A DNA stretch of 64,000 nucleotides, taken from assembly GCA_042577965.1 (NCBI GenBank), contig JBHPDK010000002.1:6635-70634 (forward strand), in the 5' to 3' direction. The notes under the pieces were generated by a model. That model had not been told where the DNA came from. It searched no databases and saw only the letters and a list, made by a program, of their open reading frames with translations. Source of the DNA: Patescibacteria group bacterium (GTDB lineage Bacteria > Patescibacteriota > Gracilibacteria > UBA1369 > PNNO01). Shown here piece by piece: positions 1 through 16,824 of this stretch. Position 1 is the stretch's first letter. Every line of letters starts with the position of its first letter. Position numbers and translations under genes: made by a program.

Positions 1-843
1 TATATTTTGATTGAAGTTGATGATACTGATGCAACTTTTGGTTCTCTTGTTTGGAGCGCTGCTGACGCGAACAATCCTGTGCAGTTAAGCTCTTCAGCAA
101 GCGATGGGGACAGAATTGAAGATATTGAATACGGTGGTGCTGCATTAACTCCGGGAAATACTTATTATGTAAGAATGGCATTCTCAAATTCATCTGGACT
201 TACCCGTGCAGACCGTGGCCTTTGGACTCACCTTGATATGGGCAACCATTATCAGTTTGATATTGCTTCTACTTACATGGAAATAACAAATGCATGTAGC
301 GATCTGATTGAAGTTGTTGATACAAATGCAGGCGGAAGAGCAGTTGGGCAGCCATTAAAAAATTCACAATATGACAGATATGGTGAAGATACCTGTGACT
401 TTACTATCAATTCAACAGATACATCGTGGAAGGTTTATTACAGTATGGCTCCGACAATAACAGATATGGAGGACAGCTCAGACACATTTACTTTTGCTGC
501 AATAGTAAATCCTAGTGATTATCAGATGGATTCCACTGGTGACAATACATATATAGAAGAAGAATATGGATTTCACATCGATGATATTTCAGGAACATCT
601 GCATATATTCAAGCTGATACTGAAACTGGAACACATGATTATGATGACTGGACTCCTGGAACAACAGGCCAGTATGTATTTGATATCGAAACAGATGCAA
701 GTAAAGACAAAATTTTAGATGGCGGCGGCGGCACTATTACCGGCGGCCAGTTCCGCTTATATATACATGGAGGCGTAGATGATTTTACTGTCGGCGCCAC
801 TTACGACCTCGACACATGGATGGTAATAACAGGAACACCTTAA
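1..843 (+). CDS. 3' part of a large surface protein (FN3-like domain plus C-terminal WxL/pilin-like module); gene starts before the window
   Basis: Frame is open from the window edge. It is colinear with the last ~330 aa of the next ORF (LTPGNTYYVR / GLWTHLD / EEYGF motifs) and ends GATYDLDTWMVITGTP. Confidence 0.8.
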   Translation, partial: YILIEVDDTDATFGSLVWSAADANNPVQLSSSASDGDRIEDIEYGGAALTPGNTYYVRMAFSNSSGLTRADRGLWTHLDMGNHYQFDIASTYMEITNACSDLIEVVDTNAGGRAVGQPLKNSQYDRYGEDTCDFTINSTDTSWKVYYSMAPTITDMEDSSDTFTFAAIVNPSDYQMDSTGDNTYIEEEYGFHIDDISGTSAYIQADTETGTHDYDDWTPGTTGQYVFDIETDASKDKILDGGGGTITGGQFRLYIHGGVDDFTVGATYDLDTWMVITGTP

Positions 844-848
844 TATAT

Positions 849-3800
849 ATGAAAAAAACACTCACTTACATATCGATTTTAATTGGAATTTTGCTCGGAA
901 GCATCAGCATCTGGATGGTGCCTGGTGTTTTGGCGCAAGATGCCAGTGATGTGGCTGTTGAGATTGAGGTGGATGACGGTTGTAACTGGACAGGCACACC
1001 GTACCTTCCAACATCATCGCTATCAGTAGCGGATAATGAAATTTGTGTGATTCAGGGTTTAAATAGGGCAGCATTAAATGTAACAATTGACGAAGACGAC
1101 GGTGGTGGTGGCCAGCTGGGTGGTAGATTAATTATTGGTTCTGATGTTGTAGAGACTGTCTTTACTGTTGGCGGAACATTTAATGCAAATGGTATTATTG
1201 AAGTTGGAGCCGCAGGAAATCAGCCTGTTAACTCTACATTAATAACTAATGGTAATCTAAACATTTCTGCAACTGGCAGCAATGGTGATTTTGATATTAT
1301 TGAAAACACAAATGCTACACCTTTAAAAGGTATCAATATCGTTGATATAAATAATAATCCAATGCTTGTTGGTAGTGCTACTACAACCGGTAATTTTACA
1401 AACAACGATAATTCAACAAGTACTATTGCTGGCCTTGATGTGTATGGAGAATTTGAAAACTTACATGCCTCAGGTATTATTACTTTTGATGGTTCTGTTG
1501 GTGGTTCATATATCAGAACAGGTTCAACTTTTGATAATGATGGAACTTTAAATGTTAACGCTGACTTCAATGTACAAGGATTAGTTTCCGCTGATAACAG
1601 TGGAGAAGTAAATGTTACCAATGGACATTGGTGGGTAGGATCTACTGACGCAGGTATCGTAACATTCAACAATTCAGGGGATGTTAATATAAACACAACA
1701 GGAAAATGGTTTGCGTCTCAACACAGTACTGCAGCAACAAATACGGGAACAATAACCGCTCCTCAATTCCTTGTTCAGCATGGTGCAACATTTAATAATA
1801 ATTCCGGTGGCTTAATCGACACAAGTGTTTCAGGCGGAATATTTGTAGTATATGGCGATGCCACATATGGAAACGGAACCTTTAATAATAACTCTGGTGG
1901 TATAGTAACTACAGATTTAGTTTGGATTGTAGATCCTGATTTTGGTACTGGCCCTAACTATACTGACCGCCCAACCCTTAATAATAATGATGGAGCTAAC
2001 TTCACAGCAGGTTCAATTGATTTTAGTTGGGATGATTTAGGAGATTGGCTAGATCCTGGTGTATTTGTTGCTTACGGAAGTATTTTAAATAATGATGGCG
2101 AGTTTATAGTAATTGATGACGGTGCTGACGCTGTTAGCATGTATAGAGGAGCAAAATTAAACAACACAGCTAATGGAACATTCACCTTATCTGGTACTGC
2201 TTCTGAAATTGAAATGAGTAAATCAACCGGAGGAGCCTTTACCAGTGAATGCGGCGCAACCGCAGATATTAAATGTCAAATCACAAATACAAATGTTACT
2301 GATGCTGATGCGTTTAGCGTTAGTGGAGACATCACTTTATGGCAATATGCAGAATTGAACAATAACGGGAATATGACCATTAGCGGTGCGAATAATATTG
2401 ATATTGAAGAAAACAATGTTTCTGTAATTAATGGATCAAATGGTAATTTGGATCTCGAAGGTGCAAATGAAGAATTTAACTTTAATGTAACAGTTGATAA
2501 CGATGGAGACATCGATACAACAACTGCTTCAATAGTAATGTCTAATACTGCATCACTTGATAATGCGAGTACCGCAACACTAACTATAGGTGGAACTACC
2601 ACTGATTTAACTCTAAACAACTCTGCTGAAATTACAAACTACGGAGTAATTAATGTTCCTGATGATGTAACTTTGGTTACCGGCGGAACTCCGGTTACAA
2701 GCATTGTAAATACTGGAAGCAGCGCAAACTTCAATGTTTTAGGTAGTGACGGAAACAGTGTTTTAGAATTACAAGTCGACACAACATTCGACAATGAAGC
2801 AAGCGCAACTGTTGATGTTGACAGTGTAGCAAGCACAGACACAGACAATGGTATGCTAAAAATCTTTGGTAATGGCGTGGGTAATGATGCAATTTATACA
2901 AATGATGGAATAACCAGAGTTCATATATTAAATATAGGGGACACTAATACAAGCACTGATGGCGGAGTATTAGTTAATCAGGGAACTGGTGGTGAATTTG
3001 ATGTAACGTATTACTACACAAGCGTTAAGTCAATTGAGATATATAGAGGAAGCATAACAAATACCAGTACATTCTATGATGGCGGAACAGATAATCCAAG
3101 TTTTGATATTGGCGGCCAGATTCAGGCCATCGGAATTACAGGAGACATTGCCACAGTGACAAACGAAGGAGTGGTTGCGTTCAGGGAACGTCCATATTTT
3201 GAAGATTATTCAATTTTGGATCTTGATGCAGGACGATGGGTGTCATCAGCTAATGCAGGTACGAGCGCTCAGGATCACTACACATTTATTATAGGTGGAA
3301 CCGGCCCTTTCAATTCTGTTCTGGATATTGAAAGCGGAGCAACTTACAGTGGCCAGTTATATTGCGGATGGGGTGCTGATAGTTGTCAGGCATATAACGA
3401 CGGAACAATTAATCGTGTTGATTTGGATGGTGTATCTACAACAAGATATTTAAGTGTATATATGAATAACAGTTCTGTTTTTGATAATTACGGGATAGTT
3501 GATTTTCGTGGGAACATGATTGCAAATAACTCAATTTTTAATAACGAATCTACTGGAACAGTTTCAGCTGATACTTTTGGAAGTCTTTATGCTAATAATG
3601 GTGGCACATTCAATAATAATGCTGATGCAATAACTACTGTTAATCAAATTATAATTCAGAATGCAGGTTCTTATTATTATCAGGATGAGAGATCAGCGAG
3701 TTCTGCTACAAAAACTACTACTACAACCGGATTAATTGATATTGAATCAGGAGGCGCCTTCCAGAATGAAGACCTTGTGCAGGCAGTAGGTTTAAGTGTT

Positions 3801-6800
3801 AATGGTAATGGCAGTTATTTCTATCAAAAAGCCGGTGTTACAGCCTCGAATTCAGTAACTACTTTAACAGCTGCATCTACAATTGATGCAAGTTCAGGAA
3901 CAGCAACCGTGGATATTGATGCTGGTACAACCATTACAACAAATAATGCATTTAGTGTAGATACCGGCGGGGATGTGGATAACAGCGGAATCCTTACTTT
4001 AACCGGAACAGGTACAAATAATCTTCAGGTAGATGGAGGTAATTACGAATCCGGCACAAGTTCAACTCTTAATCTTGCTGGTACTCCGGGTATGCAAATG
4101 AGTTTAAATACTTCAACAGCTGAAATAGCAGGTACAACTCCAGGTAGTCCATCTTTCCAGAATAAAGGTGGCGAATTATGTTTAGGACAATGGAACGTAG
4201 GAGTGGGAGGCCCAGCTTCTAACTGTATTGATTCAACAAACACTATTACTTTAGGCGGATTAACAGTTGATACACTTAACAACACAACTTCTGATGATAC
4301 TGATGTATATATAGGGTCTAACCTTACAGTGCAGGGTGATATTGATGTGGATTCCCTTGATGACGCTGCTGTTAGCGTTGATATCACACAAAATTCAAGT
4401 TCATATTTACAAATAACACAGAATGGAGATTTAAGTATTAATGAAGGTTCAACCGGCCAGGGTATTACATTCACTTCAGGCGGGCATATGGATATTCAGG
4501 GTAGCGGCCTCGGGAATCATGGGCATATTAGAGCAGAAGGTGATGCAACAGTAAGTCTTAATCATATAACTGATGATTATGACATCGGGAGTTTATGGCT
4601 TCTGGCAAGCAATAGTGAAGCTGCATCCGTTACTTTAGCTTCAGGCGCAACTCTAAATCTTAATGATACTCATACAAGTAATCTTGGTGCAGCAGTAATT
4701 ACATTAAATGATAATAATGGTGACGGCTCTGCAACATTCACAACAAACGGAACCACAAATCTTAATTCAGGCAGTACACAAAATTTAATTCTTGGATACA
4801 CAACTTCAACAGACGGAACAGGCGAACTCGAAGTCGGAAGCGGCGGATATATAGAACATGATGAGATTGGCGGCTCATCAGGTAATGTTGATATTAATGC
4901 AACAGGCCGACTTGAAGTAATTGCTGACGCTAACGCAGACAAAGACGCAGACTTTTACGGGACTTTAACAGTTGGCGGTGATTATAATGATGGAACCGGC
5001 AACCGCGGCGCATATATTGGTGGGCAACTGGAAAATGAAACAACTTTAACAATTGAGTCCGCTGGCTTTATGGATGTGGGCGCGAACGGTGATGTAACTG
5101 TAGATGGCTCAACCACTTCAGTAAGCGGAAATATGGAGCTCGATGGCACACTTAATTCAGGCGACCTCACTGTTACTTCAACTGGTGTTATTTCATCAGG
5201 TGATGGCAACCCAACAGTTTCAGGCTCTGGTTGTGGTGTTGGCGGCAATTTTGGATGCGGATCTTCAAGTAATTTTTATATAAATGCAGGTGATGTAAAT
5301 GTGCAGTCAGGCGGTGCAATAAGCTCAGATGCAGTAAGTACTGTTGTTTCTTCTGATACGGGTGGTGGTTCTCATGGTGGTGAAGGTGAAGGAATAACCG
5401 GTACAGGAAAAACATATGGAAAAGTTAAATTAGATGAAACAGGAACTCCAACTTACGGTGATTCAACTAATGCACCATCTTATGGGCAAGCAGGTTACAC
5501 TGGTGCTGCTGCAGATGGTAAAGGTGGTGGTGGTGTAAGAATTTACTCAAACGGTGACTTTACAAATAACGGTACAATCAGTGCTAATGGTGCAGCTGGA
5601 ACTACGTACAGTGGTGCTGGTGGTACAGTTATTATTGTTCATCAACCAACTTTGTCTGGAGCATACTTTATTGGCGATGGGCCAATTACAGCTAATGGTG
5701 GTTCTGGAACTAATGCTGGTGGTGGTGGACGTGTAATTATCAAGTCTCCTTTATTAGATGATCCTGACTTCTCAAGTTATGATGTTGGAGAAGACGGCGG
5801 ATCAGTTAGCGCTGCTCCTGGTGCAGGCGGTGGTGCAGCTGGTACAGTTGTATACCTTGGAGACGGACACAACGATGGTACGGGCTCAACGGTTTATGGC
5901 ACATTGATTGTTGACCAGGCAGGTGAAGCTTCAACTGTTCAAACAGAAATTCCAACAGGAGCCCCTGCAGGCAATATTAAATTTGCCCGAATTGAAGCCA
6001 AAAATGGCGCAGAGGTATATTATGCAGCTGATCCTGTGAACGATCCAACCTCTTGTTACACTCTCGACACAAGTACAATTGATCTTAATGGTGGCGCATG
6101 TAATGAAGAGCCGGATAAACCGGATACTTTATATATAGGTGCTGACCCGACTGGTGCTCAATCAGGTACTGAACCTGGCTACCAGCTAACCGACGGTGTT
6201 GATAATACTGTTTTGTCAGTTGCTGATATAACTCCTCAGTTTAGTGTGATCTACAGACATCCTGAAGCTGCTGATGCAGTCAAAATGCAAATTCAGGTTG
6301 ATGATGCAAGTGCAGCCTTTGGTTCTATAATCTGGGATTACACTAAATCAGGTGTAACCGAAGAAGACCTTAGTACTCTCTCAAACGGCGAGCGCTCAAT
6401 GGATATTGAATATAATGAAGACAGTGGGGCAACTTCTGACTTAAGCCCTGGCAACACATATTACGTTCGTACAAGATTTTATGACGCAACTGATACTCCG
6501 GGATTATGGAGCCACTTAGACTATAACGATCATTATAAATTTCAGATATCAACTTATGCAGCAATCTGGATAGATAACTGTAATAATGGTGCTTATACAG
6601 ATTTATTAATAACGCAGGATGGGACAAGAGGAGGTGCTGATATGGCAAATATTGATGGCCAGAGATTCGGTTATGGAACCTGTGATGTACATGTTTCAAC
6701 TTCAGATACAACATGGGATGTAGACTTTGGAATGAATGCAAGCGAAGGCATAAGTCAGGCATTAGCATTTAATACTGATCCTGGAAATGCTGGATTTAGT

Positions 6801-7190
6801 ATCAATCCTATTAATAATGCAGGCAACGATTGTACAGTTGATGTGGATGGTATAGATACAACTGAAGAATATGGATTTAATATTGAAACATATGCTGATG
6901 GCGCAGGAACAGATAATCAGCTAATACATGATAACGTAGAAGCTGACACTGAATGTCCTACTTATTGTTCAGCTAATGCATATTTCAATGACAGCACATC
7001 TACTCCAGCAGACGCAGATTGTGTATTTGATGTTGAATTAAGCACTGCATTAGATACAATAATTGATGTTGTAGGTAGTGTCTTAAACGAAGGTATCTTT
7101 ACAATTAGAATACTCGAACATGCATACCAGAGTGATGCCGGCACTTACACTCTTGACGCAGAATTTACGTTAACAACAACAACACCTTAA
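849..7190 (+). CDS. Giant secreted adhesin-like protein (~2113 aa): N/G/T-rich beta-helix-like passenger, Gly-rich domain, FN3-like domain, C-terminal WxL/pilin-like module
   Basis: Start at ATG 849 gives a signal peptide ending VLA|QDA. Contains repeated FNNxG/TIT motifs and GGGSHGG/GGGGxVxI motifs. Ends AGTYTLDAEFTLTTTTP, with no C-terminal TM. Confidence 0.8.
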   Translation: MKKTLTYISILIGILLGSISIWMVPGVLAQDASDVAVEIEVDDGCNWTGTPYLPTSSLSVADNEICVIQGLNRAALNVTIDEDDGGGGQLGGRLIIGSDVVETVFTVGGTFNANGIIEVGAAGNQPVNSTLITNGNLNISATGSNGDFDIIENTNATPLKGINIVDINNNPMLVGSATTTGNFTNNDNSTSTIAGLDVYGEFENLHASGIITFDGSVGGSYIRTGSTFDNDGTLNVNADFNVQGLVSADNSGEVNVTNGHWWVGSTDAGIVTFNNSGDVNINTTGKWFASQHSTAATNTGTITAPQFLVQHGATFNNNSGGLIDTSVSGGIFVVYGDATYGNGTFNNNSGGIVTTDLVWIVDPDFGTGPNYTDRPTLNNNDGANFTAGSIDFSWDDLGDWLDPGVFVAYGSILNNDGEFIVIDDGADAVSMYRGAKLNNTANGTFTLSGTASEIEMSKSTGGAFTSECGATADIKCQITNTNVTDADAFSVSGDITLWQYAELNNNGNMTISGANNIDIEENNVSVINGSNGNLDLEGANEEFNFNVTVDNDGDIDTTTASIVMSNTASLDNASTATLTIGGTTTDLTLNNSAEITNYGVINVPDDVTLVTGGTPVTSIVNTGSSANFNVLGSDGNSVLELQVDTTFDNEASATVDVDSVASTDTDNGMLKIFGNGVGNDAIYTNDGITRVHILNIGDTNTSTDGGVLVNQGTGGEFDVTYYYTSVKSIEIYRGSITNTSTFYDGGTDNPSFDIGGQIQAIGITGDIATVTNEGVVAFRERPYFEDYSILDLDAGRWVSSANAGTSAQDHYTFIIGGTGPFNSVLDIESGATYSGQLYCGWGADSCQAYNDGTINRVDLDGVSTTRYLSVYMNNSSVFDNYGIVDFRGNMIANNSIFNNESTGTVSADTFGSLYANNGGTFNNNADAITTVNQIIIQNAGSYYYQDERSASSATKTTTTTGLIDIESGGAFQNEDLVQAVGLSVNGNGSYFYQKAGVTASNSVTTLTAASTIDASSGTATVDIDAGTTITTNNAFSVDTGGDVDNSGILTLTGTGTNNLQVDGGNYESGTSSTLNLAGTPGMQMSLNTSTAEIAGTTPGSPSFQNKGGELCLGQWNVGVGGPASNCIDSTNTITLGGLTVDTLNNTTSDDTDVYIGSNLTVQGDIDVDSLDDAAVSVDITQNSSSYLQITQNGDLSINEGSTGQGITFTSGGHMDIQGSGLGNHGHIRAEGDATVSLNHITDDYDIGSLWLLASNSEAASVTLASGATLNLNDTHTSNLGAAVITLNDNNGDGSATFTTNGTTNLNSGSTQNLILGYTTSTDGTGELEVGSGGYIEHDEIGGSSGNVDINATGRLEVIADANADKDADFYGTLTVGGDYNDGTGNRGAYIGGQLENETTLTIESAGFMDVGANGDVTVDGSTTSVSGNMELDGTLNSGDLTVTSTGVISSGDGNPTVSGSGCGVGGNFGCGSSSNFYINAGDVNVQSGGAISSDAVSTVVSSDTGGGSHGGEGEGITGTGKTYGKVKLDETGTPTYGDSTNAPSYGQAGYTGAAADGKGGGGVRIYSNGDFTNNGTISANGAAGTTYSGAGGTVIIVHQPTLSGAYFIGDGPITANGGSGTNAGGGGRVIIKSPLLDDPDFSSYDVGEDGGSVSAAPGAGGGAAGTVVYLGDGHNDGTGSTVYGTLIVDQAGEASTVQTEIPTGAPAGNIKFARIEAKNGAEVYYAADPVNDPTSCYTLDTSTIDLNGGACNEEPDKPDTLYIGADPTGAQSGTEPGYQLTDGVDNTVLSVADITPQFSVIYRHPEAADAVKMQIQVDDASAAFGSIIWDYTKSGVTEEDLSTLSNGERSMDIEYNEDSGATSDLSPGNTYYVRTRFYDATDTPGLWSHLDYNDHYKFQISTYAAIWIDNCNNGAYTDLLITQDGTRGGADMANIDGQRFGYGTCDVHVSTSDTTWDVDFGMNASEGISQALAFNTDPGNAGFSINPINNAGNDCTVDVDGIDTTEEYGFNIETYADGAGTDNQLIHDNVEADTECPTYCSANAYFNDSTSTPADADCVFDVELSTALDTIIDVVGSVLNEGIFTIRILEHAYQSDAGTYTLDAEFTLTTTTP

Positions 7191-7203
7191 CTTATTAAAT
7201 ATA

Positions 7204-8181
7204 ATGAAAAAACTAAACCTAATAATCTCGATCCTCACTCTAACAATGCTCTTCACAGCATTCGCACCTATGACCAATGCAATTGGCGCTTCACCTCTCA
7301 GAGTTCAACTCGAAGCAGCACCTGGCGAAACTGTTGAAGGAATGGTTCGGGCGCAGAATAGTAAAGATGAAGATCAGGTTGTTGTTTTAATGAAAGGTGA
7401 CTTTTTAGTTGATGAGAAGGAGGATCTGCAGTTTATGTATGAATATGACGAAACAAATAAATGGAGCCTTCAAAATTGGCTTGATTTAAACGAAAACAAC
7501 ATACCGGTTGGCCCTAATGAATCAGTTGAAATTAAATATCAAATCGAGGTTCCGCAGGATGCAGCATCGCAAAGTTATTATGGAGTTGTGTTTGTTCAGA
7601 GTCAGGATCCTGAAATTTTTGAAGGGCTTGGTGGAGTTGGTGTTCAGGCAAATGTAGCTCAGCTTGTTTTGCTTGAGGTAACTGGTGATCTAAAAAGTGA
7701 TGTTGAGGTAAAAGACATGAAGCTTGTTGAAGAAAACGCAGGTCATCGTTTTGAAACAACTGTATTTAACAACGGAAACACTCATGATGCTTCAACTGGA
7801 ACAATAATAGTCACAGATTCAAAATTAAATATACTTGAAGAGCTTGATTTTAATAAAGCAAAACACAATGCCCTGCCTGAAACACAAAAAAATTATATTG
7901 TAATGTGGGAGAAGTTTGCAGAATATGAAGCTGGAATTTATTATGCTTATCTAAATGTTAATGATGAAAATAATGAATACTTAAGCGCAGAACTTAAATT
8001 TGAAATAACAGATCAGGCAGAAATTGAAATTCTTAATCTTAAAATCGGACGAAGCTATACGGAAGCCAAGGCTGCTTATACTGATATTCCTGTAATTCCA
8101 CTTGTTATTATTGGATTCGCTCTAATAGTAGGACTCATCGCAAAAACATGTTGCAGAAAAAAAAGAAAAACAAAAAAATAA
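7204..8181 (+). CDS. DUF916/WxL-interacting (PapD-like Ig) membrane-anchored protein
   Basis: Signal peptide; SP-x-x-x-x-L-x-x-x-PGET start; conserved W and VPQDA..SYYG; second Ig domain with NNGNTH; C-terminal TM and basic tail. Confidence 0.65.
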   Translation: MKKLNLIISILTLTMLFTAFAPMTNAIGASPLRVQLEAAPGETVEGMVRAQNSKDEDQVVVLMKGDFLVDEKEDLQFMYEYDETNKWSLQNWLDLNENNIPVGPNESVEIKYQIEVPQDAASQSYYGVVFVQSQDPEIFEGLGGVGVQANVAQLVLLEVTGDLKSDVEVKDMKLVEENAGHRFETTVFNNGNTHDASTGTIIVTDSKLNILEELDFNKAKHNALPETQKNYIVMWEKFAEYEAGIYYAYLNVNDENNEYLSAELKFEITDQAEIEILNLKIGRSYTEAKAAYTDIPVIPLVIIGFALIVGLIAKTCCRKKRKTKK

Positions 8182-8190
8182 TTTAATATA

Positions 8191-8766
8191 ATGTGTAAAA
8201 AATTGGCTTATTTAACAGGGTTTCTGGCAGTTGTAGCAATAGCAGCTATAACTCTGTTTGCTATGCCAATGTCCGCAGAACACGCAGAAGAATTACACGA
8301 AGCAAAGTATTACGGTGCTGCGGGTGAAGTTCTTAAAGGTCAGGTAACAGTGCTAAATCCAACAAATGAAACAAAAATAATCCTTGCAGAGATTGAAGAA
8401 GAAGGTCACCATAAATGGTTATTTTTACCACAGGACGAGTTTACAATCGGCCCAGGAAGCAAAGTTGTTGTTCAATACGAAGTACGCATTCCTCATGATA
8501 TGGAAGAACCAACATGCCAAAGAATAATTCATATAAAAGAAACAAGCCCATCTAATACACTTAGTTTAAAGCATACTGTCACAATATTCGTACAAGGCGT
8601 ATCAACATTAAGGGGTGCAACAGAGGTAAATATGCTTTATACAACAGTAACAATTATGATGATTGTTGCCTTTGCATTAGGTATTTCAATGGGCGGAATA
8701 TGCTGTTTAAAATTACTCATGCAAAAGATAAATGGTAAAAAAAAGGCTAGAAAAAGGAAGAAATAA
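8191..8766 (+). CDS. Short single-domain paralog of the DUF916-like proteins, membrane anchored
   Basis: GEVLKGQVTVLNPT, KWLFL, IGPGSKVVVQYEVRIP motifs match both neighbours; C-terminal TM and Lys/Arg tail. Confidence 0.6.
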   Translation: MCKKLAYLTGFLAVVAIAAITLFAMPMSAEHAEELHEAKYYGAAGEVLKGQVTVLNPTNETKIILAEIEEEGHHKWLFLPQDEFTIGPGSKVVVQYEVRIPHDMEEPTCQRIIHIKETSPSNTLSLKHTVTIFVQGVSTLRGATEVNMLYTTVTIMMIVAFALGISMGGICCLKLLMQKINGKKKARKRKK

Positions 8767-8813
8767 GTGGTATAATGATTTAACGTGCCTGAAAAAAAAG
8801 TATACTCAAGGCG

Positions 8814-8842
8814 TTGACTTCTAAGGCGAAATGTAGTACAAT
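8814..8842 (+). promoter_or_regulatory. sigma70 promoter of the small pilin-like gene
   Basis: TTGACT-17-TACAAT, followed by a ~130-nt leader. Confidence 0.6.
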
Positions 8843-8980
8843 ATATAATGACAAAAAGAAAAATTAATAAAAAATTCGACACATTTAATCAATAATTTCC
8901 GTTCTGGTCGAGACGGATGAGAAGGGAAAACAAAGAGGGGTGGGGTCAATTATAAACGTTTATAATTAACCAAAACAAAA

Positions 8981-9604
8981 ATGAAAAAAGTTTTAGCAAT
9001 TCTTGCTGTTGTAGCTGTTGTTGCAGTTGCTTCAGTAGCTCACGCTCAAACTAGTGCAGTTCAAGTTTCTGGTTCAATCAGTACAACATTAGGTCTTACA
9101 CCATGTACTGTTGCACTTGGAACAATTACAACTAGTAAATCTACTGCTACCTGTACTACAGATCCAGTTGTTACTGCGAACACTGCAAATGGTTATAATA
9201 TCACTTTAGAATTCACAACTGGTACTCTTTTAAACACAGGTGAATCTAGTGATACCATAGCTAATCTTGTAGATCTTACTGCAGATGATACTTGTCCAAC
9301 TGGTCCTGGTGCAACTGATTGTTGGGCTGTTGGTTCTGTTGTAGTAGGTTCTACTCCAGATCCTAATTTCTCTGCTGCTGCAGATAGTTTCAATGATACC
9401 GAAGGAAACTGGGGGACAGATCCCGAACATCCAATTCCAACTGGTGGTGCAGCTACTATCGTTGACGATGGATCATCAGGTGATCAAACAGCTAGTGGTT
9501 ATGATTTCGACATGACTTTCTCAGTTGTAGCAAATAATGTTGATCAAGAAGCTGGTACTTACTCAAATACTGGTGGAACATTAACTATTGCTGCTAATCC
9601 GTAG
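8981..9604 (+). CDS. Small secreted WxL/CsuA-like protein; putative major fibre subunit
   Basis: Signal peptide AHA|QTS; 4 Cys; TANGY motif; ends AGTYSNTGGTLTIAANP; strongly T/A-ending codons; has its own promoter and terminator. Confidence 0.7.
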   Translation: MKKVLAILAVVAVVAVASVAHAQTSAVQVSGSISTTLGLTPCTVALGTITTSKSTATCTTDPVVTANTANGYNITLEFTTGTLLNTGESSDTIANLVDLTADDTCPTGPGATDCWAVGSVVVGSTPDPNFSAAADSFNDTEGNWGTDPEHPIPTGGAATIVDDGSSGDQTASGYDFDMTFSVVANNVDQEAGTYSNTGGTLTIAANP

Positions 9605-9619
9605 TCAGCTTAATAAAAT

Positions 9620-9652
9620 AAAAAAGCGAGTTTTTTCAAACTCGCTTTTTTT
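9620..9652 (+). terminator. Intrinsic terminator
   Basis: AAAAAAGCGAGTTT-loop-AAACTCGCTTTTTTT. Confidence 0.85.
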
Positions 9653-9704
9653 ATATATACATATATGTTATATTGTCGAACGATTAAATAATTAACCTAA
9701 AAAA

Positions 9705-11048
9705 ATGAAAGTAAAAAAATTAATTACTTTTTTAATTACTGTTCTATTTACAGCTATTTTGGCATTTACTACTATTTCAACTGTTTTTGCAATAATAATA
9801 TCTCCAGCAACATTTGAATATACTGTATCCCCAGGCGAAACAGTAGAAGATTCAATTACTCTCACAAATAATGAAAATAGTCCGAAGTTTTTAAAAGCAT
9901 ATCTGAATGACACATATATTCTTGCAAGAAATCAAACTAAGCAATATACAGATGAAGCTCAGCCACGAGGAATTATCAATTGGACAACTATACTAGAAGA
10001 TCCTACCCAAGTAAATCCAGGAGAAGAATTTACATTTAACTTTATAATCCGTATCCCTAAAGGTGCTGAACCTGGCACTTATTCAGGTGCAATAATGGGT
10101 TCTGCTTTTGAAGATCTTGAAACCGCAGGTTCTGCGGTAGGCTTAGCACCAAGGGCTGCAGGAACGATGAATATTACCGTTGAAGGAGATTTTGAAGAGA
10201 AGTTATCAGGTGAAAATTTCACTATAGATCCTCTAAAAAAGGAACAAGGCTCTATAGTATTTGTTTTTGAAGCGAAAAACGAAGGTAATGTAAAGATTGC
10301 TCCTATTGGAGAAATTAAAATTTATGATAAACAAGGCAACATGGTGCCAGGTGTATATGCTGTAGTAAAAGAATTCGAAAATGAAAAAGTAATAACTGAC
10401 AGATTAGATGTAATTCCATTCAATCCTGGAAATGAGTCTATTTTGCCTTCTGTAACAAGAGGAATTAATACCGGCTGGGAAAATCGGAATGTAGAACCTG
10501 GCGAGTATAAAGCAAAATTAAATTTATACTATGGACAAGATAATACAAAGATTGAACTTGAAACAGATATGTTTGAAATAGAAGAAAATTTTCAATTAGC
10601 TGATTTAGCAGCTGATTCGGCATTCAAAAGCTCTCTACCAATTACATTTTCAGCAAAACTGAAGAACCAAGGATCTGTTGATTTAAGTCCAACAGGTAGC
10701 TTTTCAATTAAAAATATTTTCGGAATGGAGAAAAAAAGGGTAGATCTATCAGCTGATGAATTGAAAATAAAAGGCGGAGAAGAAAAAACAATTAATAATT
10801 TAACATGGGATACGGGTTTTGCATTTGGTATTTATAGTGCAAATCTTGAGCTAAGGGTCGGCGACCAAACCTATATTGCTACAACTACATTCTGGATTTT
10901 AAGCTGGTGGCAGGTACTTATTACAATAATTGTTGTTTTAGTTATTATTTTTGCTTTATATAAAGGGATTCATGGGTATCTTGCAATGAAAAAAAAGCTT
11001 GAAACAAAAGAATCAATAGAAGGAACACCTAAAGAAACAACCGAATAA
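9705..11048 (+). CDS. DUF916/DUF3324-like membrane-anchored protein with three Ig-like domains
   Basis: ISPATFEYTVSPGETV, IPKGAEPGTYSG, and two KNxGxVxxxPxG domains; C-terminal TM. Confidence 0.7.
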   Translation: MKVKKLITFLITVLFTAILAFTTISTVFAIIISPATFEYTVSPGETVEDSITLTNNENSPKFLKAYLNDTYILARNQTKQYTDEAQPRGIINWTTILEDPTQVNPGEEFTFNFIIRIPKGAEPGTYSGAIMGSAFEDLETAGSAVGLAPRAAGTMNITVEGDFEEKLSGENFTIDPLKKEQGSIVFVFEAKNEGNVKIAPIGEIKIYDKQGNMVPGVYAVVKEFENEKVITDRLDVIPFNPGNESILPSVTRGINTGWENRNVEPGEYKAKLNLYYGQDNTKIELETDMFEIEENFQLADLAADSAFKSSLPITFSAKLKNQGSVDLSPTGSFSIKNIFGMEKKRVDLSADELKIKGGEEKTINNLTWDTGFAFGIYSANLELRVGDQTYIATTTFWILSWWQVLITIIVVLVIIFALYKGIHGYLAMKKKLETKESIEGTPKETTE

Positions 11049-11072
11049 GCTCTGTTTTGATTTATACTTTTT

Positions 11073-11106
11073 AAAAAACACTAATATAGAAAATTAGTGT
11101 TTTTTG
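11073..11106 (+). terminator. Intrinsic terminator
   Basis: AAAAAACACTAAT...ATTAGTGTTTTTT. Confidence 0.7.
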
Positions 11107-11115
11107 TATATAAGC

Positions 11116-11144
11116 TTGCCATTCTGAGTGTTTTGGTGTATAAT
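11116..11144 (+). promoter_or_regulatory. sigma70 promoter
   Basis: TTGCCA-17-TATAAT. Confidence 0.65.
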
Positions 11145-11173
11145 ATTATTGAAAATAAAAAACAAATAAAACG

Positions 11174-13219
11174 ATGTTTAAAAAATTCTATTTATTTACT
11201 ATTACATTAATATTTGCTTGTAATTGTACTGTTGCCTTAGCACAAACAGGCGCTGTTAGTGTTTCTGGTCATGTTTTACCAAAAGATATTACAAATCTTA
11301 CTGCGGTCGATGTAGTTCTCGGATCAGGGGAAGTGGCCTTAACATGGACAACAAGCATTACTTCTAGTGTTGATACTCAAAGAGTAGAAATTACTGGTCC
11401 ACAAGATCCTGGAATTAATTTCACAACAAAAAATTTACCATTTAAAATAATTGACGGAGGTGTTGGGCCTAGTGCAGCAGATAATTACGCTAATTATGCT
11501 CCTTTTACTAATATCACTGGATTAGTCCCGGGAGAAGCTTATATTTTTAGGATTGTTTCTATTGTTGCGGCCCTCGAAAGTCCTGGCGCACCCCCTGATG
11601 CCCAAATAATATTTATCCCTGGCTCAGCACTCCCTCCCCCATTCCTCCAGGATGAACCAGATATCACGCCTACCTCAACTACAAATACTTTATATTGGGA
11701 TAACGGTGGTGTAACCGATGCAACTTTGGAATGCAGAATTATTGCAAGTACAACAGACCTTTATTCTGATCCTCTTGGAGAACCAGTTGGTGGTGTAGGT
11801 GGTCTTGGCGACAGTGGATGGGAAGATTGTCCGGATCCTTTGGTCACATATGAATACGAATTCACCGGCCTGACCCCAGGCACAACATATTACTATCACG
11901 TTCAGTCACGCTCAGCTGTTGATGGCTTGAGCCCTTTTTCAAATGTAGAAGATTCTCAGCAAAGGCCTCCGACTCCAATCCCTCCTCCTGCAGATGATGA
12001 AGAACCTGGTGATGGCCCTGGTGGCGGCGGCGGAATAATCCCAGGTACATGCGGAAACGGAATTTTGGATCCTGTTGAGGAATGCGATGATGGCAATACA
12101 GATGATGGTGATGGTTGTTCTGCAAGTTGTCAGGATGAAGAAGCAGCTGTTTCTCCGGTAGCAGTAGTATGTGGTAATGGAATTGTTGAGCCTCCTGAGG
12201 AATGTGATGACGGCAACACAGATAATGACGATGGGTGTTCGTCTGTTTGTGTAGTTGAGCCTGAACATGCGGTGGCTCCTGCTATAGCAGCAGTCTGCGG
12301 TAATGGAACTGTTGAAGCTCCTGAAGAATGTGATGATGGTAATACAGATTCAGGCGATGGCTGTTCTGACACCTGTTTAATTGAAGAAACAGTTTGTGGT
12401 AATGCAATTGTTGAAGCTCCGACTGAGGAATGTGACGATGGTAACACCACAAGCAATGATGGATGTTCAGATACGTGCCAGTTAGAGGAAATTGTCGAGG
12501 TTGTGCTTGAAATAAGGGGTGCTCCGCAGTATCGTGTTACAAATTTCAAAAGAATGGCTGAAGAATCAATGGTAAATGAATCACTTTTAGATCTTACAAA
12601 AACATCACTAATAGCACAAACAGACACTACTTCCCCTGCAGCTCTTACTCCTACTGCAGGCCAAACTGACACAAGAACAACAACAATAACAACTCAAGAG
12701 TTGGCCGTAGGTGTTGATGCTGATCCAGCTGACATTTATAGAATTTATAATACTCCAAATCGTGGATTAAATGCGCAACTTGGCATATACAAGCCAATTA
12801 TCACAAATCTTGATGTTATAAGTATACAATTGGACAATTTTGGTAATGCCAGCATCCCGATTACCATTGTAGCTGGAACTTACGATTTTGCGCTTAATGG
12901 AGAGGCCCACAACGCAACAATCATGAGAGATAAAAAAATTACATCTGAAACCAAGGTTCTCACCCTCGACTTCACATTTAAAGACACAGTTTTCCAAGTA
13001 GCTGGCGACAACGTAGATGATAATCGCGTAAATGCGCTTGATATGAGCAGAATACTCGGTTCATATAAATCCAAGGGAATTAATATTAGCGACTTCAATA
13101 AAGATCTAAATCCAATAGTTAACGCACTCGACATAGCAATCCTCATCTGGAACTACAAAATGGAAGGACAATACCTGATCCCGCGTGAAGTCGTTATCCC
13201 GCGTGAAGTCGCGATTTAA
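11174..13219 (+). CDS. Secreted protein: two FN3 domains, Pro/Gly linker, four Myxococcus-type Cys-rich (DUF4215) repeats, C-terminal dockerin-like domain
   Basis: GLVPGEAY and GLTPGTTYYY; CGNGxxExxEECDDGNxxxxDGCSxxC four times; duplicated GDNVDDNRVNALD / DFNKDxxxxVNALD Ca-loop-helix motif. Confidence 0.8.
   Translation: MFKKFYLFTITLIFACNCTVALAQTGAVSVSGHVLPKDITNLTAVDVVLGSGEVALTWTTSITSSVDTQRVEITGPQDPGINFTTKNLPFKIIDGGVGPSAADNYANYAPFTNITGLVPGEAYIFRIVSIVAALESPGAPPDAQIIFIPGSALPPPFLQDEPDITPTSTTNTLYWDNGGVTDATLECRIIASTTDLYSDPLGEPVGGVGGLGDSGWEDCPDPLVTYEYEFTGLTPGTTYYYHVQSRSAVDGLSPFSNVEDSQQRPPTPIPPPADDEEPGDGPGGGGGIIPGTCGNGILDPVEECDDGNTDDGDGCSASCQDEEAAVSPVAVVCGNGIVEPPEECDDGNTDNDDGCSSVCVVEPEHAVAPAIAAVCGNGTVEAPEECDDGNTDSGDGCSDTCLIEETVCGNAIVEAPTEECDDGNTTSNDGCSDTCQLEEIVEVVLEIRGAPQYRVTNFKRMAEESMVNESLLDLTKTSLIAQTDTTSPAALTPTAGQTDTRTTTITTQELAVGVDADPADIYRIYNTPNRGLNAQLGIYKPIITNLDVISIQLDNFGNASIPITIVAGTYDFALNGEAHNATIMRDKKITSETKVLTLDFTFKDTVFQVAGDNVDDNRVNALDMSRILGSYKSKGINISDFNKDLNPIVNALDIAILIWNYKMEGQYLIPREVVIPREVAI
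13178..13211 (+). repeat. In-frame 16-bp direct repeat with 18-bp period at the gene end
   Basis: ATCCCGCGTGAAGTCG at 13178 and 13196 (IPREVV-IPREVA). Confidence 0.9.
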
Positions 13220-13503
13220 TAATATTTCATATCATAAAGATCCTTCAATAACGGCCCTGGCAAAGGCGCACACCCTCTTCGCCCAATCTCCATCTGTTTC
13301 TTATTAAACCAGTGCCTTATCACAGTGCGAAGTTCCACATCTCCAACAAAAAATCCCACCCCATCCTGCGTAGTAAAAGCCTTTAAAAAGACTTTAACAA
13401 GGGTGGCGAGACCAATCCCTAATTGGTCCTGACATTTTGCTTTAGCCATTTGGTAAATCTCGGCATCCATGCGGAGGTTTAGTTGCTGCTGTTTTTTAGA
13501 CAT
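13216..13503 (-). CDS. Putative ribbon-helix-helix DNA-binding protein
   Basis: QQLNLRMDAEIYQMAKAKC..LGIGLATLVKVFLKAF fits the RelB/DinJ/Arc beta-alpha-alpha pattern. Confidence 0.65.
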   Translation of the reverse strand: MSKKQQQLNLRMDAEIYQMAKAKCQDQLGIGLATLVKVFLKAFTTQDGVGFFVGDVELRTVIRHWFNKKQMEIGRRGCAPLPGPLLKDLYDMKYY

Positions 13504-13521
13504 AATAGAAGGGGTTAAGGA

Positions 13522-13571
13522 TTAACTACACTATCAAAATTACTAGTAATTTACTAGTAAATAGTAGAGTG
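13522..13571. repeat. Left copy of a 50-bp inverted repeat containing tandem TTACTAGTAA palindromes
   Basis: 47/50 identical to the reverse complement of 16843-16892. Confidence 0.95.
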
Positions 13572-13701
13572 TAGTTTTCGTCCACCTCCTGCCAACATGC
13601 TGCTACGCCTCCCGCCGCATATCTCTCCGCAAATTCCCCTAAAAACCCTTTCAAAAACTGCCTTTTTATGATATAATATATAGAGAAAATAAAAAACAAA
13701 A

Positions 13702-16700
13702 ATGCTTAAAAATATAACAGCCCACATTCTTGCTTTCATCATAGCTTTTACGAGCTTTGTTCCGGCTGCCATGGCAGCTTATTTTTATGTAGATGATAAT
13801 CCAAATTTACGAAAAGGATGCCCAGGGCAAATCAATGTTATGCTTAATACAGAAGGCTCAAATGTGCTTGCAGCAGATTCAACAATGAACTTTAGTACAG
13901 CTGAAATGAGTGTGGTAAATATGGCCCTGAATGTGGCGCTTCCAATGCAGACTTATAATCAGATCACAGGCACTTTACTTGAACTTAGTGGGGCAAGGCT
14001 TCCTGCAACCGGTGCATTTAATGGCAATGGTATTTATGGAATTCTGGATATTATTCCGGATATAGCAGCAGCCAGTGTGACTTTGAATTTTTCACCTGAC
14101 CTTAATGTTGATAATGTAATTGCCGAAGAAATCACTTTTGCAAATATAATCAATATACCGGATGGCGCACAAGACGGAACTATTGCAGTAAAAGACAGAT
14201 ACAATAAAGAAGTTGATGGCGTAGGGTTCTGTACACCGGATTTGAATCCTCCTACTGTTAACTTCATTCTTCCTCCAAATGGTTCAGGCGGCAACCCGGC
14301 TAATCAGCCAAATGAAATCTTTTCAATTCAGGATGACCGTGCAGGTGTAGATATTTCAACTTTATCGTACACAATTGAGGGAGTTAGCTATACAAACACT
14401 TCTGCTCAAACAGATTTATCAGAGTCAGGTGGTGTTCATAGAGTTGAAACAACATTTACTTCAGATTGGAGCCCAGGTCAAAAAGTAGACATCAGTGTTT
14501 ACGTATGTGACTTAAATACAGACCCGGCTCCTAATTGCAATACAACAACCGGCCACTTTAATATTTATTCTCCTCCTCCTCCTTCACCGGTTTGCGGTGA
14601 CGGAATAGTTACTTACACAAACGGCGAACAATGTGACGACGGCAATACTGACAACGACGACGGATGCAGTGCTCATTGTTTTATTGAAATAGAGCCTGTG
14701 GTTTGCCCTGATATTCCAACAGATGTACCTTGCCCTACAGCAGGCTTAACAATTGTTAAAGACTTAAGTGCAGCGCTTCCTCCAGGCCAACTCCCTGTTG
14801 TAACAGGTGTTGGTGCAGCAACTGAAGAAGAGATTCTTGCAGGCGAATATCCTGCAGTTGGAACTGCAATCAAAAAAGGCATCCCAGGATGTACACGTGA
14901 AGATATCACAAAAGATGTACTTGCTGAATTTAACGTTGAAGACAGATACAGTGCAAAAGATATAAGATGTTTAGAGGATGTTGAACACTGTATGCTTCCT
15001 TTCTTAATGCACAGCGCTTACCCGGATGCAAATCCTGCTGGCAACAGATATTACCCTGATGTTTACCTAAGTGGCGAGCGAAGCGAGCCACTTCTTGAAG
15101 ACGATTCAGGGCCAATTTCAGGACAATCAAAAGATGCAATCCACTTTAGTACCCGTGAAGGTATGCTTCATGGATTCTATTTAGACTATATGAACTTAAG
15201 CCCTTTCAGACCACAATGGAACATGACAAGAATACAGATTATTAAAACTCTAAACTGGGCTGTCTTTGGCCAGTTATGGGAATATGAAGAAGAATACTAC
15301 GCAGAAATCGGAGGCGAACAAAACTTAGGCCAGGTACGAAGGCTCGCTGCTGACTTAACACAATGGTGGTATCCAAGATACTACAACTTTGCATGCGACA
15401 AAGGCGTATTTAATTGCGACCCTATGATGAACTTTGGTCCTGATGAAATTTGTTCACCTGAATGGAAGCGTGAAATCTTTGCAAGATACAAAGTATATTT
15501 TGAAGGCCAAAAACAAGAAGTCGCAGATATGAATGAAGACTCAGACGCCGACGGCCTTGTTGATTATGATGAATCAAGAGTCTTCTTAACAAATCCTGAA
15601 AACAAAGATACAGACGCAGACGCCCTCGGTGACGGCGATGAAATAGTAAAATACAAATCAAATCCAAAACTTACAGATACAGACTTTGATGGCCTTGATG
15701 ACGGCGACGAAGTAAACAAATACAAAACAAATCCTGTGCTGCCAGACACTGACGGCGATACATATCCTGATGGAATCGAAATTCGCGAAGGAACAGATCC
15801 TTTAGATCCAAACAGTTCCCCTGTAGATGAAGATGGCGATGGCATTCCTGATAAATGGGAATTACAATATGGAATCAATCCTCAAAACGGTGTAGAAGAC
15901 TTTGATGGCGATGGCCTTTCTGATTTTTTCGAACACAGGTATAGCACAGATCCAACAAATCCGGACACGGATGGCGACGGACTTTCTGACGCTGACGAAG
16001 TGCTTCTATACGGAACAGATCCTAATGAATACACAAACCTTTCAGAACTCGGAGTGCGAATTACAAATATAATGGACCAAATGACTCTTACTGATCCACG
16101 TCCTTTACTTCAGGGCTTCGCTCCTTTAGAAGGAATGGAAGTTGAAATTATTTTACGAAACGAATTCGGCAACGAAGTACTACTCGGAAGCGCTATAACA
16201 GATGTTAATAACGCATGGGTATTCACCCCTGAATTTGACATCCTGGACGGCGAATTCTATTTGTTAGCCAAAGGTCTCGATACCAAAAACAAACGAATTT
16301 TAGAATCTCCACTCATCGGAGTAATAATGAATTCAAAGCTTCAGGTAAGCGAGCCACAGCCAGAACGACTCGGCGACACAAACATCACAGAAGAAGTACT
16401 TCTTGAAGGCTTGAGTATTGAAACCCGCGATTCTGCTCCAATTTTAATCGGACGAACAGGCTTTAAAAACAAAGTAATTGCAACATGGCAGTCAGTACTC
16501 GGTACTTCTGCAATCGTAGCTGACCTTGCTGGCGGCGAATTCAGAATCCAGGCTCCAAAAGAGCTCGCACCCGGTCCCCACAAAGTTTCAGTTTACTCAA
16601 TCCGCGACAAAGACAACGCAATGAGTAAAGTTGTTACTGTTAACTTCGAAGTCAAAGAACCATTTGCTGCAATCCTTCGCGGCGTAGCAATGGGCAAAGA

Positions 16701-16824
16701 ACTTATTTTCCCTCTATGGGTATGGACTATGATCTTCCTGGGCGCAGGCCTATTACTTGGCGGCGGCATGTGGATCGAACACCACAGAAAAAAGAAAAAA
16801 GACGGCAAAACTGAGAAGAAATAG
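13702..16824 (+). CDS. Membrane-anchored surface scaffold: cohesin-like domain, Ig-like domain, DUF4215 repeat, SLH-like domain, TSP3-type Ca-binding repeats, Big/Ig domains, TM
   Basis: N-terminal INVMLNT..AAD..MNF..NGNGIYGIL cohesin pattern; YPDV..DAI..EGMLHGF..FRPQWNMTR SLH pattern; about 8 DTDGDGLxDxxE repeats; C-terminal TM and basic tail. Confidence 0.75.
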   Translation: MLKNITAHILAFIIAFTSFVPAAMAAYFYVDDNPNLRKGCPGQINVMLNTEGSNVLAADSTMNFSTAEMSVVNMALNVALPMQTYNQITGTLLELSGARLPATGAFNGNGIYGILDIIPDIAAASVTLNFSPDLNVDNVIAEEITFANIINIPDGAQDGTIAVKDRYNKEVDGVGFCTPDLNPPTVNFILPPNGSGGNPANQPNEIFSIQDDRAGVDISTLSYTIEGVSYTNTSAQTDLSESGGVHRVETTFTSDWSPGQKVDISVYVCDLNTDPAPNCNTTTGHFNIYSPPPPSPVCGDGIVTYTNGEQCDDGNTDNDDGCSAHCFIEIEPVVCPDIPTDVPCPTAGLTIVKDLSAALPPGQLPVVTGVGAATEEEILAGEYPAVGTAIKKGIPGCTREDITKDVLAEFNVEDRYSAKDIRCLEDVEHCMLPFLMHSAYPDANPAGNRYYPDVYLSGERSEPLLEDDSGPISGQSKDAIHFSTREGMLHGFYLDYMNLSPFRPQWNMTRIQIIKTLNWAVFGQLWEYEEEYYAEIGGEQNLGQVRRLAADLTQWWYPRYYNFACDKGVFNCDPMMNFGPDEICSPEWKREIFARYKVYFEGQKQEVADMNEDSDADGLVDYDESRVFLTNPENKDTDADALGDGDEIVKYKSNPKLTDTDFDGLDDGDEVNKYKTNPVLPDTDGDTYPDGIEIREGTDPLDPNSSPVDEDGDGIPDKWELQYGINPQNGVEDFDGDGLSDFFEHRYSTDPTNPDTDGDGLSDADEVLLYGTDPNEYTNLSELGVRITNIMDQMTLTDPRPLLQGFAPLEGMEVEIILRNEFGNEVLLGSAITDVNNAWVFTPEFDILDGEFYLLAKGLDTKNKRILESPLIGVIMNSKLQVSEPQPERLGDTNITEEVLLEGLSIETRDSAPILIGRTGFKNKVIATWQSVLGTSAIVADLAGGEFRIQAPKELAPGPHKVSVYSIRDKDNAMSKVVTVNFEVKEPFAAILRGVAMGKELIFPLWVWTMIFLGAGLLLGGGMWIEHHRKKKKDGKTEKK

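Follow-up and report, generated by a model that had tools for sequence, protein, structure and literature searches.

A locus of a Patescibacteria group bacterium that probably encodes an usher-less donor-strand-exchange pilus

Organisation of the locus

The stretch analysed in this study (the window) comprises 64,000 nucleotides of contig JBHPDK010000002.1 (assembly GCA_042577965.1, positions 6,635 to 70,634) from a Patescibacteria group bacterium. Its positions 1-16,824 hold, on the plus strand, a series of genes for secreted or membrane-anchored proteins, here named by the first position of each gene. Short strands of alternating residues at the mature N-termini of three of these proteins, a small pilin (8981), an FN3 protein (11174) and a giant adhesin (849), are the subject of this work. 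Those of 8981 and 11174 are probably donor strands that join the subunits of a thin surface fibre.

The window opens within adhesin gene 1 (1-843), of which the last 280 amino acids (aa) of a 1382-aa protein are encoded, namely an FN3-like domain and a C-terminal pilin-like module proposed to be an acceptor. Adhesin gene 2 (849-7190) encodes 2113 aa from the ATG at 849. In its translation, the leader is followed by an acidic alternating strand and a long, repetitive payload rich in Gly, Asn and Thr, and an FN3-like domain precedes the putative C-terminal acceptor module. Two putative chaperone genes follow. In the product of the first (7204-8181, 325 aa), two Ig-like domains follow the leader, and a membrane helix at the C-terminus is succeeded by a Lys/Arg-rich tail. 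The second (8191-8766) encodes 191 aa, with a single DUF916-like domain after the leader, then an alternating strand and again a membrane helix and a Lys/Arg-rich tail. The single-domain pilin (8981-9604) has 207 aa, about 185 of them in the mature protein, and four Cys residues that are conserved family-wide. A third putative chaperone of 447 aa (9705-11048) starts with a leader and a DUF916-like domain, continues with more domains of the Ig-like type and has its membrane helix at the C-terminus. In the FN3 protein (11174-13219, 681 aa), a candidate for a donor-only terminator or anchor, the leader and the strand precede two FN3-like domains and four acidic repeats rich in Cys, after which come a beta-rich region and a weakly dockerin-like end. 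The last gene (13702-16824) encodes a candidate membrane anchor partner of 1040 aa, in which a leader and a beta-rich N-terminal domain are followed by a Cys-rich repeat and by TSP3 repeats, and which has a membrane helix with a Lys-rich tail at its C-terminus.

N-terminal strands of the pilin, the FN3 protein and the adhesin

The initial annotation had described a Gln-initiated alternating beta-strand shared by the mature N-termini of the 8981, 11174 and 849 proteins. In the translations, the three strings were indeed found directly after hydrophobic leaders with small residues at positions -3 and -1; cleavage sites assigned by this -3/-1 rule would give mature starts at 936 (849), 9047 (8981) and 11243 (11174). 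The proposed donor strands of the pilin (9047-9091) and of the FN3 protein (11243-11278, residues 24-35) both carry the motif Phi-x-Phi-x-[G/A]-x-Phi (Phi, hydrophobic residue), which is kept in 15/15 and 7/7 homologues, respectively. At position 5 of the 8-residue block, Gly is present in 14 and Ala in one of the 15 pilin-family members, while the FN3-protein orthologues have Gly in 4/7 and Ala in 3/7. Position 1 is hydrophobic in 20 of the 22 sequences, position 3 is V/I/L in all 22, and position 7 is V/I/L in 21.

When 8981 was compared with 11174 by BLASTP, the first 51 residues were the only notable similarity (E = 0.011, a single comparison), all other segments having E ≥ 4.9. Profile-profile comparison of the two families aligned 34 columns, which cover the signal peptide and the strand only (P = 0.0018, probability 14.9%). 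A strict form of the motif, [VI]-x-[VI]-[STNG]-G-x-[VIL], was matched four times in the 34,775 six-frame open reading frame (ORF) residues of the window, a count that is inflated because the motif was designed post hoc; two of the four matches are the mature N-termini of 8981 and 11174.

A donor-strand matrix was built from the 22 blocks (15 of the pilin family and 7 of the FN3 protein), and 20,000 random 20-residue segments of stored proteins were used as the null, with a 95th percentile of 5.0 bits. Six family blocks taken as a sample scored 7.2-17.0 bits. Nine adhesin-family proteins had mature N-termini that scored between -2.7 and +2.8 bits. Such scores were equalled or exceeded by a fraction of 0.13-0.65 of the null; the highest score and the fraction of 0.13 belong to the 849 protein. 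A common motif is therefore real in 8981 and 11174, but the strand of 849 scores within chance, so that the strand is shared by two of the three proteins. The 849 strand (936-971), in which hydrophobic and acidic residues alternate, is a generic look-alike and not the donor-strand motif. The initial Gln is incidental, as it occupies position +1 in only 8/15 pilins, 2/7 FN3 proteins and 3/9 adhesins (one of the nine adhesins being without a full leader).

Each strand could instead be integral to its protein, as the first beta-strand of its own first domain. The 8981 protein would then be a monomeric secreted beta-sandwich, and the likeness of the strands would come from beta composition and signal-peptidase constraints. 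Alternating strands are common in such beta-rich proteins, and a looser form of the motif occurred 64 times in the same 34,775 residues. The central Gly or Ala, however, is kept in 22/22 sequences, and together with the structural results given below this makes integral strands very unlikely.

The pilin

Fifteen relatives of the 8981 pilin were retrieved (16 matches at E ≤ 0.001, including the pilin itself, among 1.84 billion cluster representatives). The pilin alignment consisted of 8981 and 14 of these relatives, and P0023 was left out (610 aa, repetitive, E = 8.3e-5, 8 matched stretches). For the pilin, no Pfam family at E ≤ 0.1 and no NCBIfam match was found, and PF13731 (WxL) was matched by none of the 15 pilin-family members, even at E ≤ 1. 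The pilin profile matched only titin modules (E = 0.2) among PDB sequences. The Atlas neighbours of the pilin were clusters of the Candidate Phyla Radiation (CPR), and pilin clusters of the WxL, Csu/SCPU and CS1 types ranked lower; the likeness to one WxL cluster reached a feature score of 0.93, and that to another a template modelling (TM) score of 0.51/0.48.

In an AlphaFold2 (AF2) monomer model of 8981, residues 27-35 form a strand within the fold, which is in line with an integral strand, but the predicted local distance difference test score (pLDDT) of this strand is below 50. Among PDB folds, variants of FimA and its self-complemented form gave the best matches to the model, and EcpA and CsuA/B followed at lower rank. 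The presence of self-complemented FimA monomers among the best matches is also what an integral strand would suggest.

In an 8-sequence pilin alignment, 13 of the 18 invariant columns fall within the 22-residue signal peptide, so the leader is better conserved than the mature protein. Promoter-like sites lie at 8748-8776 and 8814-8842, upstream of the pilin gene, and a terminator-like hairpin with a GC stem and a T-run (9620-9652) starts 16 bases past the pilin stop codon. Going by consensus matches only, the pilin gene may form a separate transcription unit with higher expression within the locus, which would fit a major subunit.

The FN3 protein and its modelled complex with the pilin

The 11174 protein was aligned with five database orthologues and with one from a related locus, giving seven sequences; five of the 11 matches (P0029-P0033) were dropped, as they were FN3-only and covered 13-36% of the query. 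The four Cys-rich acidic repeats match TIGR02232 (E = 2.2e-46). The second FN3-like domain was matched at E = 3e-7. The fn3 profile matches the first at E = 0.0034, which is below the cut-off, and starts there at residue 37-40. In this family the strand is followed by an invariant Pro (Pro36 in 11174, codon 11279-11281). As the profile starts right after Pro36, the strand (residues 24-35) lies outside the FN3 domain. This agrees with the earlier view of the strand as a portable module on 11174, and argues against a strand that is integral to the first domain. Neither an LPxTG-like motif nor a C-terminal hydrophobic segment or membrane helix was found in 11174 or its five database orthologues. 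A short direct peptide repeat ends the protein (13175-13216); it is common to the 80%-identical orthologue P0027 only, and the other five homologues are without it.

A complex was modelled from residues 38-207 of the pilin, i.e. with its own strand removed, and residues 24-152 of the putative terminator 11174. The complex scored 0.79, compared with 0.00 for the best of three controls. The score mark is reached by 116/157 solved complexes and by 2/215 mismatched pairs, counts that are only rough because own alignments were used. The runs agreed in at least 93% of contacts, and the pLDDT of the partner was at least 73. The interface is formed by terminator residues 24-37 with pilin residues 38-49 and 187-204. 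On one side, the partners of terminator residues 28, 30, 32 and 34 are pilin residues 199-201, 196, 193 and 191-192; on the other, they are pilin residues 42-43, 44, 46-47 and 49. The terminator strand is therefore antiparallel to the last strand of the pilin and parallel to its first. Solved structures include many examples of the general donor-strand architecture, but recall of a solved complex is less likely, since neither family has a solved relative that is detectable by sequence.

In this model, a strand of one protein lies between the first and last strands of another, with controls at 0.00, which again speaks against integral strands. The earlier proposal that the strands of 8981 and 11174 are pilin-type N-terminal extensions gains from the model, as the groove of the N-terminally truncated 8981 is filled by the terminator strand. 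A role of 11174 as a donor-only protein that would end fibre growth is likewise supported by the model.

The giant adhesins

Adhesin 1 was recovered at full length as P0034 (1382 aa, same contig, 100% identity), together with seven homologues. For adhesin 2, no family was found in Pfam or NCBIfam and nothing in PDB sequences at E ≤ 1, and its payload was without a database match. The C-terminus of adhesin 2 (about 300 residues) is 33% identical to adhesin 1 over 315 aligned positions (E = 2e-26), and a profile of the adhesin C-terminal module (P0034-P0041, adhesin 2 excluded) matched the adhesin 2 ORF at E = 2.2e-21. From the alignment to adhesin 1, the pilin-like module of adhesin 2, which is proposed to be acceptor-only, has approximate boundaries of 6546-7187.

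BLASTP of the pilin against both adhesins found no similarity. When the mature pilin profile was compared by hhalign with 25 sliding windows of the 8-adhesin alignment, only the last two matched (P = 1.3e-4 and 0.0028), the other 23 having P ≥ 0.16. A pilin-like module had been placed at the C-terminus of 849 in the initial annotation, and this result supports it. With signal peptides left in and adhesin 2 included, the comparison gave P = 0.0036 and a probability of 9%, which rose after the leader was cut and the alignment was divided into windows. In reciprocal hmmsearch runs, pilin and adhesin were each other's best non-self match, at weak E values of 0.74 and 0.028. The hhalign alignment starts at pilin mature residue 10 and reaches the C-terminal end shared by both (in the adhesin-1 family). 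As it starts there, the adhesin module is without a counterpart of the strand core, a further point against the strand being an integral part of this fold.

The giant adhesins might also be donors and acceptors at once, with the acidic N-terminal strand inserted into a pilin-like groove, and would then either form part of the shaft or be linked head to tail in a chain at the tip. An alternating N-terminal strand does recur in the family, with Ala at the Gly/Ala position of the motif in 7/9, and the two adhesin genes stand in tandem. In addition, one Enterococcus faecium adhesin is modelled as both donating and accepting in a preprint on the Elr pili of Enterococcus faecalis (bioRxiv 10.64898/2026.10.17.759780). 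Against this, the matrix scores of the nine adhesin N-termini were those of the null, and the central position of the strand is Ile in both window adhesins. The 849 strand ends 2-5 residues before a conserved Cys/Trp block (D-P-D-C-x-W-type) that opens the N-terminal region, and the same is seen in eight other family members. ElrA-type tips, as described in that preprint, are also without a donor strand. Adhesins that both donate and accept were hence regarded as improbable here.

According to the models in the Elr preprint, the tip is formed by the large WxL protein ElrA, which only accepts, and the LPxTG protein ElrB is a donor-only terminator. The 849 protein had been suggested at first to be an ancillary subunit built into the shaft. 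This is less likely, because its strand is not the motif of the other two and runs into the Cys/Trp block, and because the large adhesin is an acceptor-only tip in published analogues. An acceptor-only tip adhesin fits the 849 protein better.

The putative chaperones

The three membrane-anchored paralogues 7204, 8191 and 9705 have an N-terminal Ig-like domain in common, as seen by alignment. PF06030 (DUF916, WxLIP_PGBD) was matched over nearly the whole profile by 7204 (E = 0.0064, 17.0 bits) and 9705 (E = 0.001, 19.5 bits), in both cases under the cut-off of 27.3. The 8191 protein had no Pfam match of its own, and PF11797 (DUF3324) was reported in none of the three paralogues. When a four-sequence profile of the chaperone family was compared with PDB sequences, the best of six matches was EfmWxLIP1 (9i1y_A, 9i25_C; E = 0.01). 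The Atlas neighbours of 9705 were CPR clusters, some of them with PF06030 (11-41% of members) or PF11797 (14%). The EfmWxLIP1 match and these neighbours support a distant relationship to the chaperones of the WxL/Elr system.

A C-terminal hydrophobic segment of 19 residues is present in 3/3 paralogues (residues 290-308 in 7204), and two of them have 8-9 Lys/Arg residues among the last 15 (eight in 7204). By analogy, the three DUF916-like membrane proteins would function as chaperones, and the 8191 protein may be a minimal one. The latter has only the first of the Ig-like domains, which is followed by an alternating strand with Gly at its end, the anchor and the Lys/Arg-rich tail.

Related locus, possible base anchor and neighbouring genes

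One related locus was found with a 3-sequence pilin alignment (1 locus from 70 pattern matches), in a metagenome-assembled bacterium. The order of the pilin gene, a 9705-type gene, an 11174-type gene, a 13702-type gene (for a 1029-aa membrane protein) and an M50 peptidase gene is kept in this locus. A search with the 8-sequence pilin alignment gave signal-peptide patterns only, with 600 pattern matches and 0 relatives. The conservation of gene order is thus that of a single locus, on a contig that ends 3.3 kb upstream of its pilin gene. Upstream of the pilin in this locus, the adhesin and chaperone genes are replaced by paralogous ORFs at 711-1532 and 2169-2987 (minus strand, 272-273 aa), and two small ORFs (108 and 188 aa) lie at 7309-8803 (plus strand) between the terminator and membrane-protein genes. 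The 80%-identical orthologue of 11174 comes from a Patescibacteria group bacterium.

The C-terminal end of 11174 (13001-13147) is weakly dockerin-like, with sub-threshold matches to Pfam Dockerin_1 (E = 0.13) and to CelS dockerins (E = 0.42). For the N-terminal 200 aa of the 13702 protein, the sole match among PDB sequences was a weak one to 2jnk_A/2ozn (E = 0.13, positions 14002-14145), which we take to be a C. perfringens cohesin module and its dockerin complex. The dockerin-like end of 11174 and the cohesin-like start of 13702 could form a non-covalent base anchor; with matches that are below threshold, this is offered as a lead only.

A VKOR-family protein (19803-20315, minus strand) and an SfLAP-family membrane protein (18743-19441, minus strand) are encoded a few kb downstream of the locus, and may supply extracytoplasmic disulfides to its proteins, which are rich in Cys pairs and Cys repeats. 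A transfer-messenger RNA (tmRNA) gene with a tag peptide of 27 residues lies at 25596-26013.

Comparison with known pili

In classical chaperone-usher pili (Fim, Pap, Caf1, Csu, CFA/I), an incomplete Ig-like pilin is completed by the N-terminal extension of its neighbour. This extension has alternating hydrophobic residues with a small central residue. The present locus is similar in its presumably incomplete Ig-like pilin and in the type of strand, and the best PDB folds of the pilin model are FimA-like, although weakly so (TM 0.38-0.47). It differs in that no outer membrane, usher or PapD-family chaperone was detected, and in that the putative chaperones are membrane-tethered. The Pfam scan covered 39 window proteins (7 + 32), and no usher or PapD family was found among these.

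In the Elr system, the WxL protein ElrD was shown by cryo-electron microscopy (cryo-EM) to polymerise via an N-terminal donor strand (mature residues 1-15), and ElrE, a DUF916/DUF3324 membrane protein, is its chaperone (bioRxiv 10.64898/2026.10.17.759780). The geometry of the exchanged ElrD strand, antiparallel to the last and parallel to the first strand, is that of the present complex model. The present locus would also resemble the Elr system in having DUF916-type chaperones that are held in the membrane by a C-terminal helix next to a basic tail, a large adhesin that ends in a pilin fold without a donor strand, and a donor-only terminator; the lack of an usher is common to both. The present proteins, however, are below the Pfam cut-offs for PF13731, PF06030 and PF11797. 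The Elr consensus is [S/T]-x-[G/A]-x-[V/I]-x-F, whereas here [G/A]-x-[V/I/L] is found in 21/22 sequences, with a hydrophobic residue instead of S/T and without Phe at the second position past the V/I/L. The Elr terminator is a 13-kDa sortase substrate, whereas the one proposed here is a 681-aa protein of FN3 domains and Cys repeats without LPxTG or a membrane helix. Three putative chaperone paralogues are present at this locus, one of them single-domain. The Elr system was reported to be confined to Bacillota, from a scan at Pfam gathering thresholds on RefSeq proteomes, and the available text of that preprint does not mention CPR; the present host is of the Patescibacteria type.

The Pam preprint (PMC13278184 / bioRxiv 10.64898/2026.03.03.709456) describes, by cryo-EM, strand-exchanged pili built from two-domain pilins in the Saccharimonadia bacterium Ca. 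Mycosynbacter amalyticus. The Pam chaperones are membrane-anchored and PapD-like, and PamR, which consists of tandem FnIII domains and an extra N-terminal strand, is predicted to terminate and anchor the fibre (PMC13278184). Neither WxL nor DUF916 is mentioned in the available part of this preprint (PMC13278184). The present locus shares with Pam the CPR host, the lack of an usher and paired pilin cysteines, and it would also share donor-strand exchange and membrane-anchored chaperones. The tandem FnIII domains of PamR, with an N-terminal strand that is predicted to go into the last pilin, resemble the strand and two FN3-like domains of 11174. PamA and PamB, in contrast, are two-domain proteins of 39-55 kDa in which the inter-domain linker is the donor strand, whereas the present pilin has one domain only, of about 185 aa, and carries its strand at the N-terminus. 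PamR has a C-terminal membrane helix, which 11174 lacks, and the PamT tip is a small single domain, whereas the tips proposed here have 1382 and about 2100 aa. No Pam entry was among the matches when the PDB was searched by sequence and by fold.

The two preprints also bear on an explanation without any fibre, in which the DUF916-like proteins would bind 8981, 11174 and the adhesin C-termini 1:1 on the cell surface and the strand would be a recognition tag. WxL clusters were earlier seen in this way: in the proposal of Hassan et al. 2023 (PMC10599100), WxL proteins are bound and stabilised at the surface by WxLIP, with a beta-hairpin strand inserted beside the WxL N-terminus. The present locus has three membrane-anchored paralogues beside three kinds of client. 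The Elr preprint, however, reports cryo-EM fibres and ladders in Bacillota that depend on the N-terminal strand, and the Pam preprint reports cryo-EM filaments in CPR that are built by strand exchange. The terminator strand was, moreover, modelled in the groove of the pilin and not on a chaperone, the pilin-terminator pair being the only one that was folded. Surface retention of this kind is hardly likely as an account of the locus.

The locus appears to work like the Elr and Pam pili but cannot be assigned to either, because its pilin is not two-domain as in Pam and its proteins stay below the Pfam thresholds for WxL families. An Elr-like design of pilin, adhesin and chaperone is combined with a PamR-like FN3 terminator in a CPR-type host. 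As two preprints from 2026 already describe the principle, the present locus is a variant bridging Elr and Pam, with no new mechanism.

Discussion

The first 16.8 kb of the window quite probably encode an usher-less, chaperone-assisted donor-strand-exchange pilus of a monoderm, Patescibacteria-type bacterium. In the proposed mechanism, all subunits would be exported by Sec. By analogy with the published systems, the membrane-tethered DUF916-like proteins would cap the open grooves of the pilin and of the adhesin C-termini until strand exchange takes place. A giant adhesin, the product of gene 1 or of 849-7190, would start the fibre as an acceptor-only distal tip. Pilins (8981) would then join at the base, where the N-terminal strand of each new subunit would complete the Ig-like domain of the preceding one, as suggested by the motif, the fold leads and the analogy. 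Finally, 11174, with a donor strand and without an acceptor groove, would plug the last pilin at the base and stop growth, a step that draws on the complex model. The analysis thus shows the motif and how far it is conserved, the order of the domains, the synteny and a modelled fit of the terminator strand to the groove of the pilin, whereas polymerisation of the pilin, the function of the chaperones, the tip position of the adhesins and anchoring at the base are inferred.

Several results weigh against this mechanism. The AF2 monomer model of 8981, an all-beta domain, is of low confidence (pLDDT 64.8, predicted TM score (pTM) 0.66), and PDB folds resemble it only weakly (best E = 1.5e-3, none at E ≤ 0.001, TM 0.38-0.47). 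The probability of the hhalign link between pilin and adhesin is only 54%. The model of the adhesin C-terminus is also of low confidence (pLDDT 62.4, pTM 0.50), and a fold search with it returned nothing significant (best E = 0.2), the CFA/I chaperone-tip adhesin complex being at rank 4 with a probability of 0.33. In the modelled complex, the pilin groove was offered empty, since the pilin's own strand had been removed before folding. The donor motif is without the Phe that ends the Elr consensus, and no family in the locus reached a curated Pfam or NCBIfam cut-off for WxL, DUF916, DUF3324, PapD or usher.

A wider and rather doubtful proposal would place the WxL/Elr pili, described from Bacillota, together with the Pam-type pili of CPR in one ancient family of monoderm pili with donor strands and membrane chaperones and without an usher. 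In the present locus the base would then be held by neither a sortase nor a membrane helix, the dockerin-like module of a soluble terminator docking instead on the cohesin-like domain of 13702; this part draws only on sub-threshold matches, synteny and the presumed identity of 2jnk/2ozn. The family of DUF916-type chaperones seems not to be limited to Bacillota. The scan behind the Bacillota-only result of the Elr preprint, made at Pfam gathering thresholds on RefSeq proteomes, would miss proteins such as those described here. In the literature searched, no paper was found that links WxL with Saccharibacteria or Patescibacteria; among the matches listed for "donor strand" and Patescibacteria were the Pam preprint and an archaeal pilus paper.

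The motif Phi-x-Phi-x-[G/A]-x-Phi after a signal peptide, beside DUF916-like membrane proteins, is a usable signature for annotating such loci and for picking out terminators and adhesins in metagenomes. The CPR/Patescibacteria are mostly uncultured episymbionts that need to attach to a host, so surface fibres are central to their biology. The main value of the present findings would lie in linking the systems of Bacillota and CPR and in annotating the surface loci of the latter.

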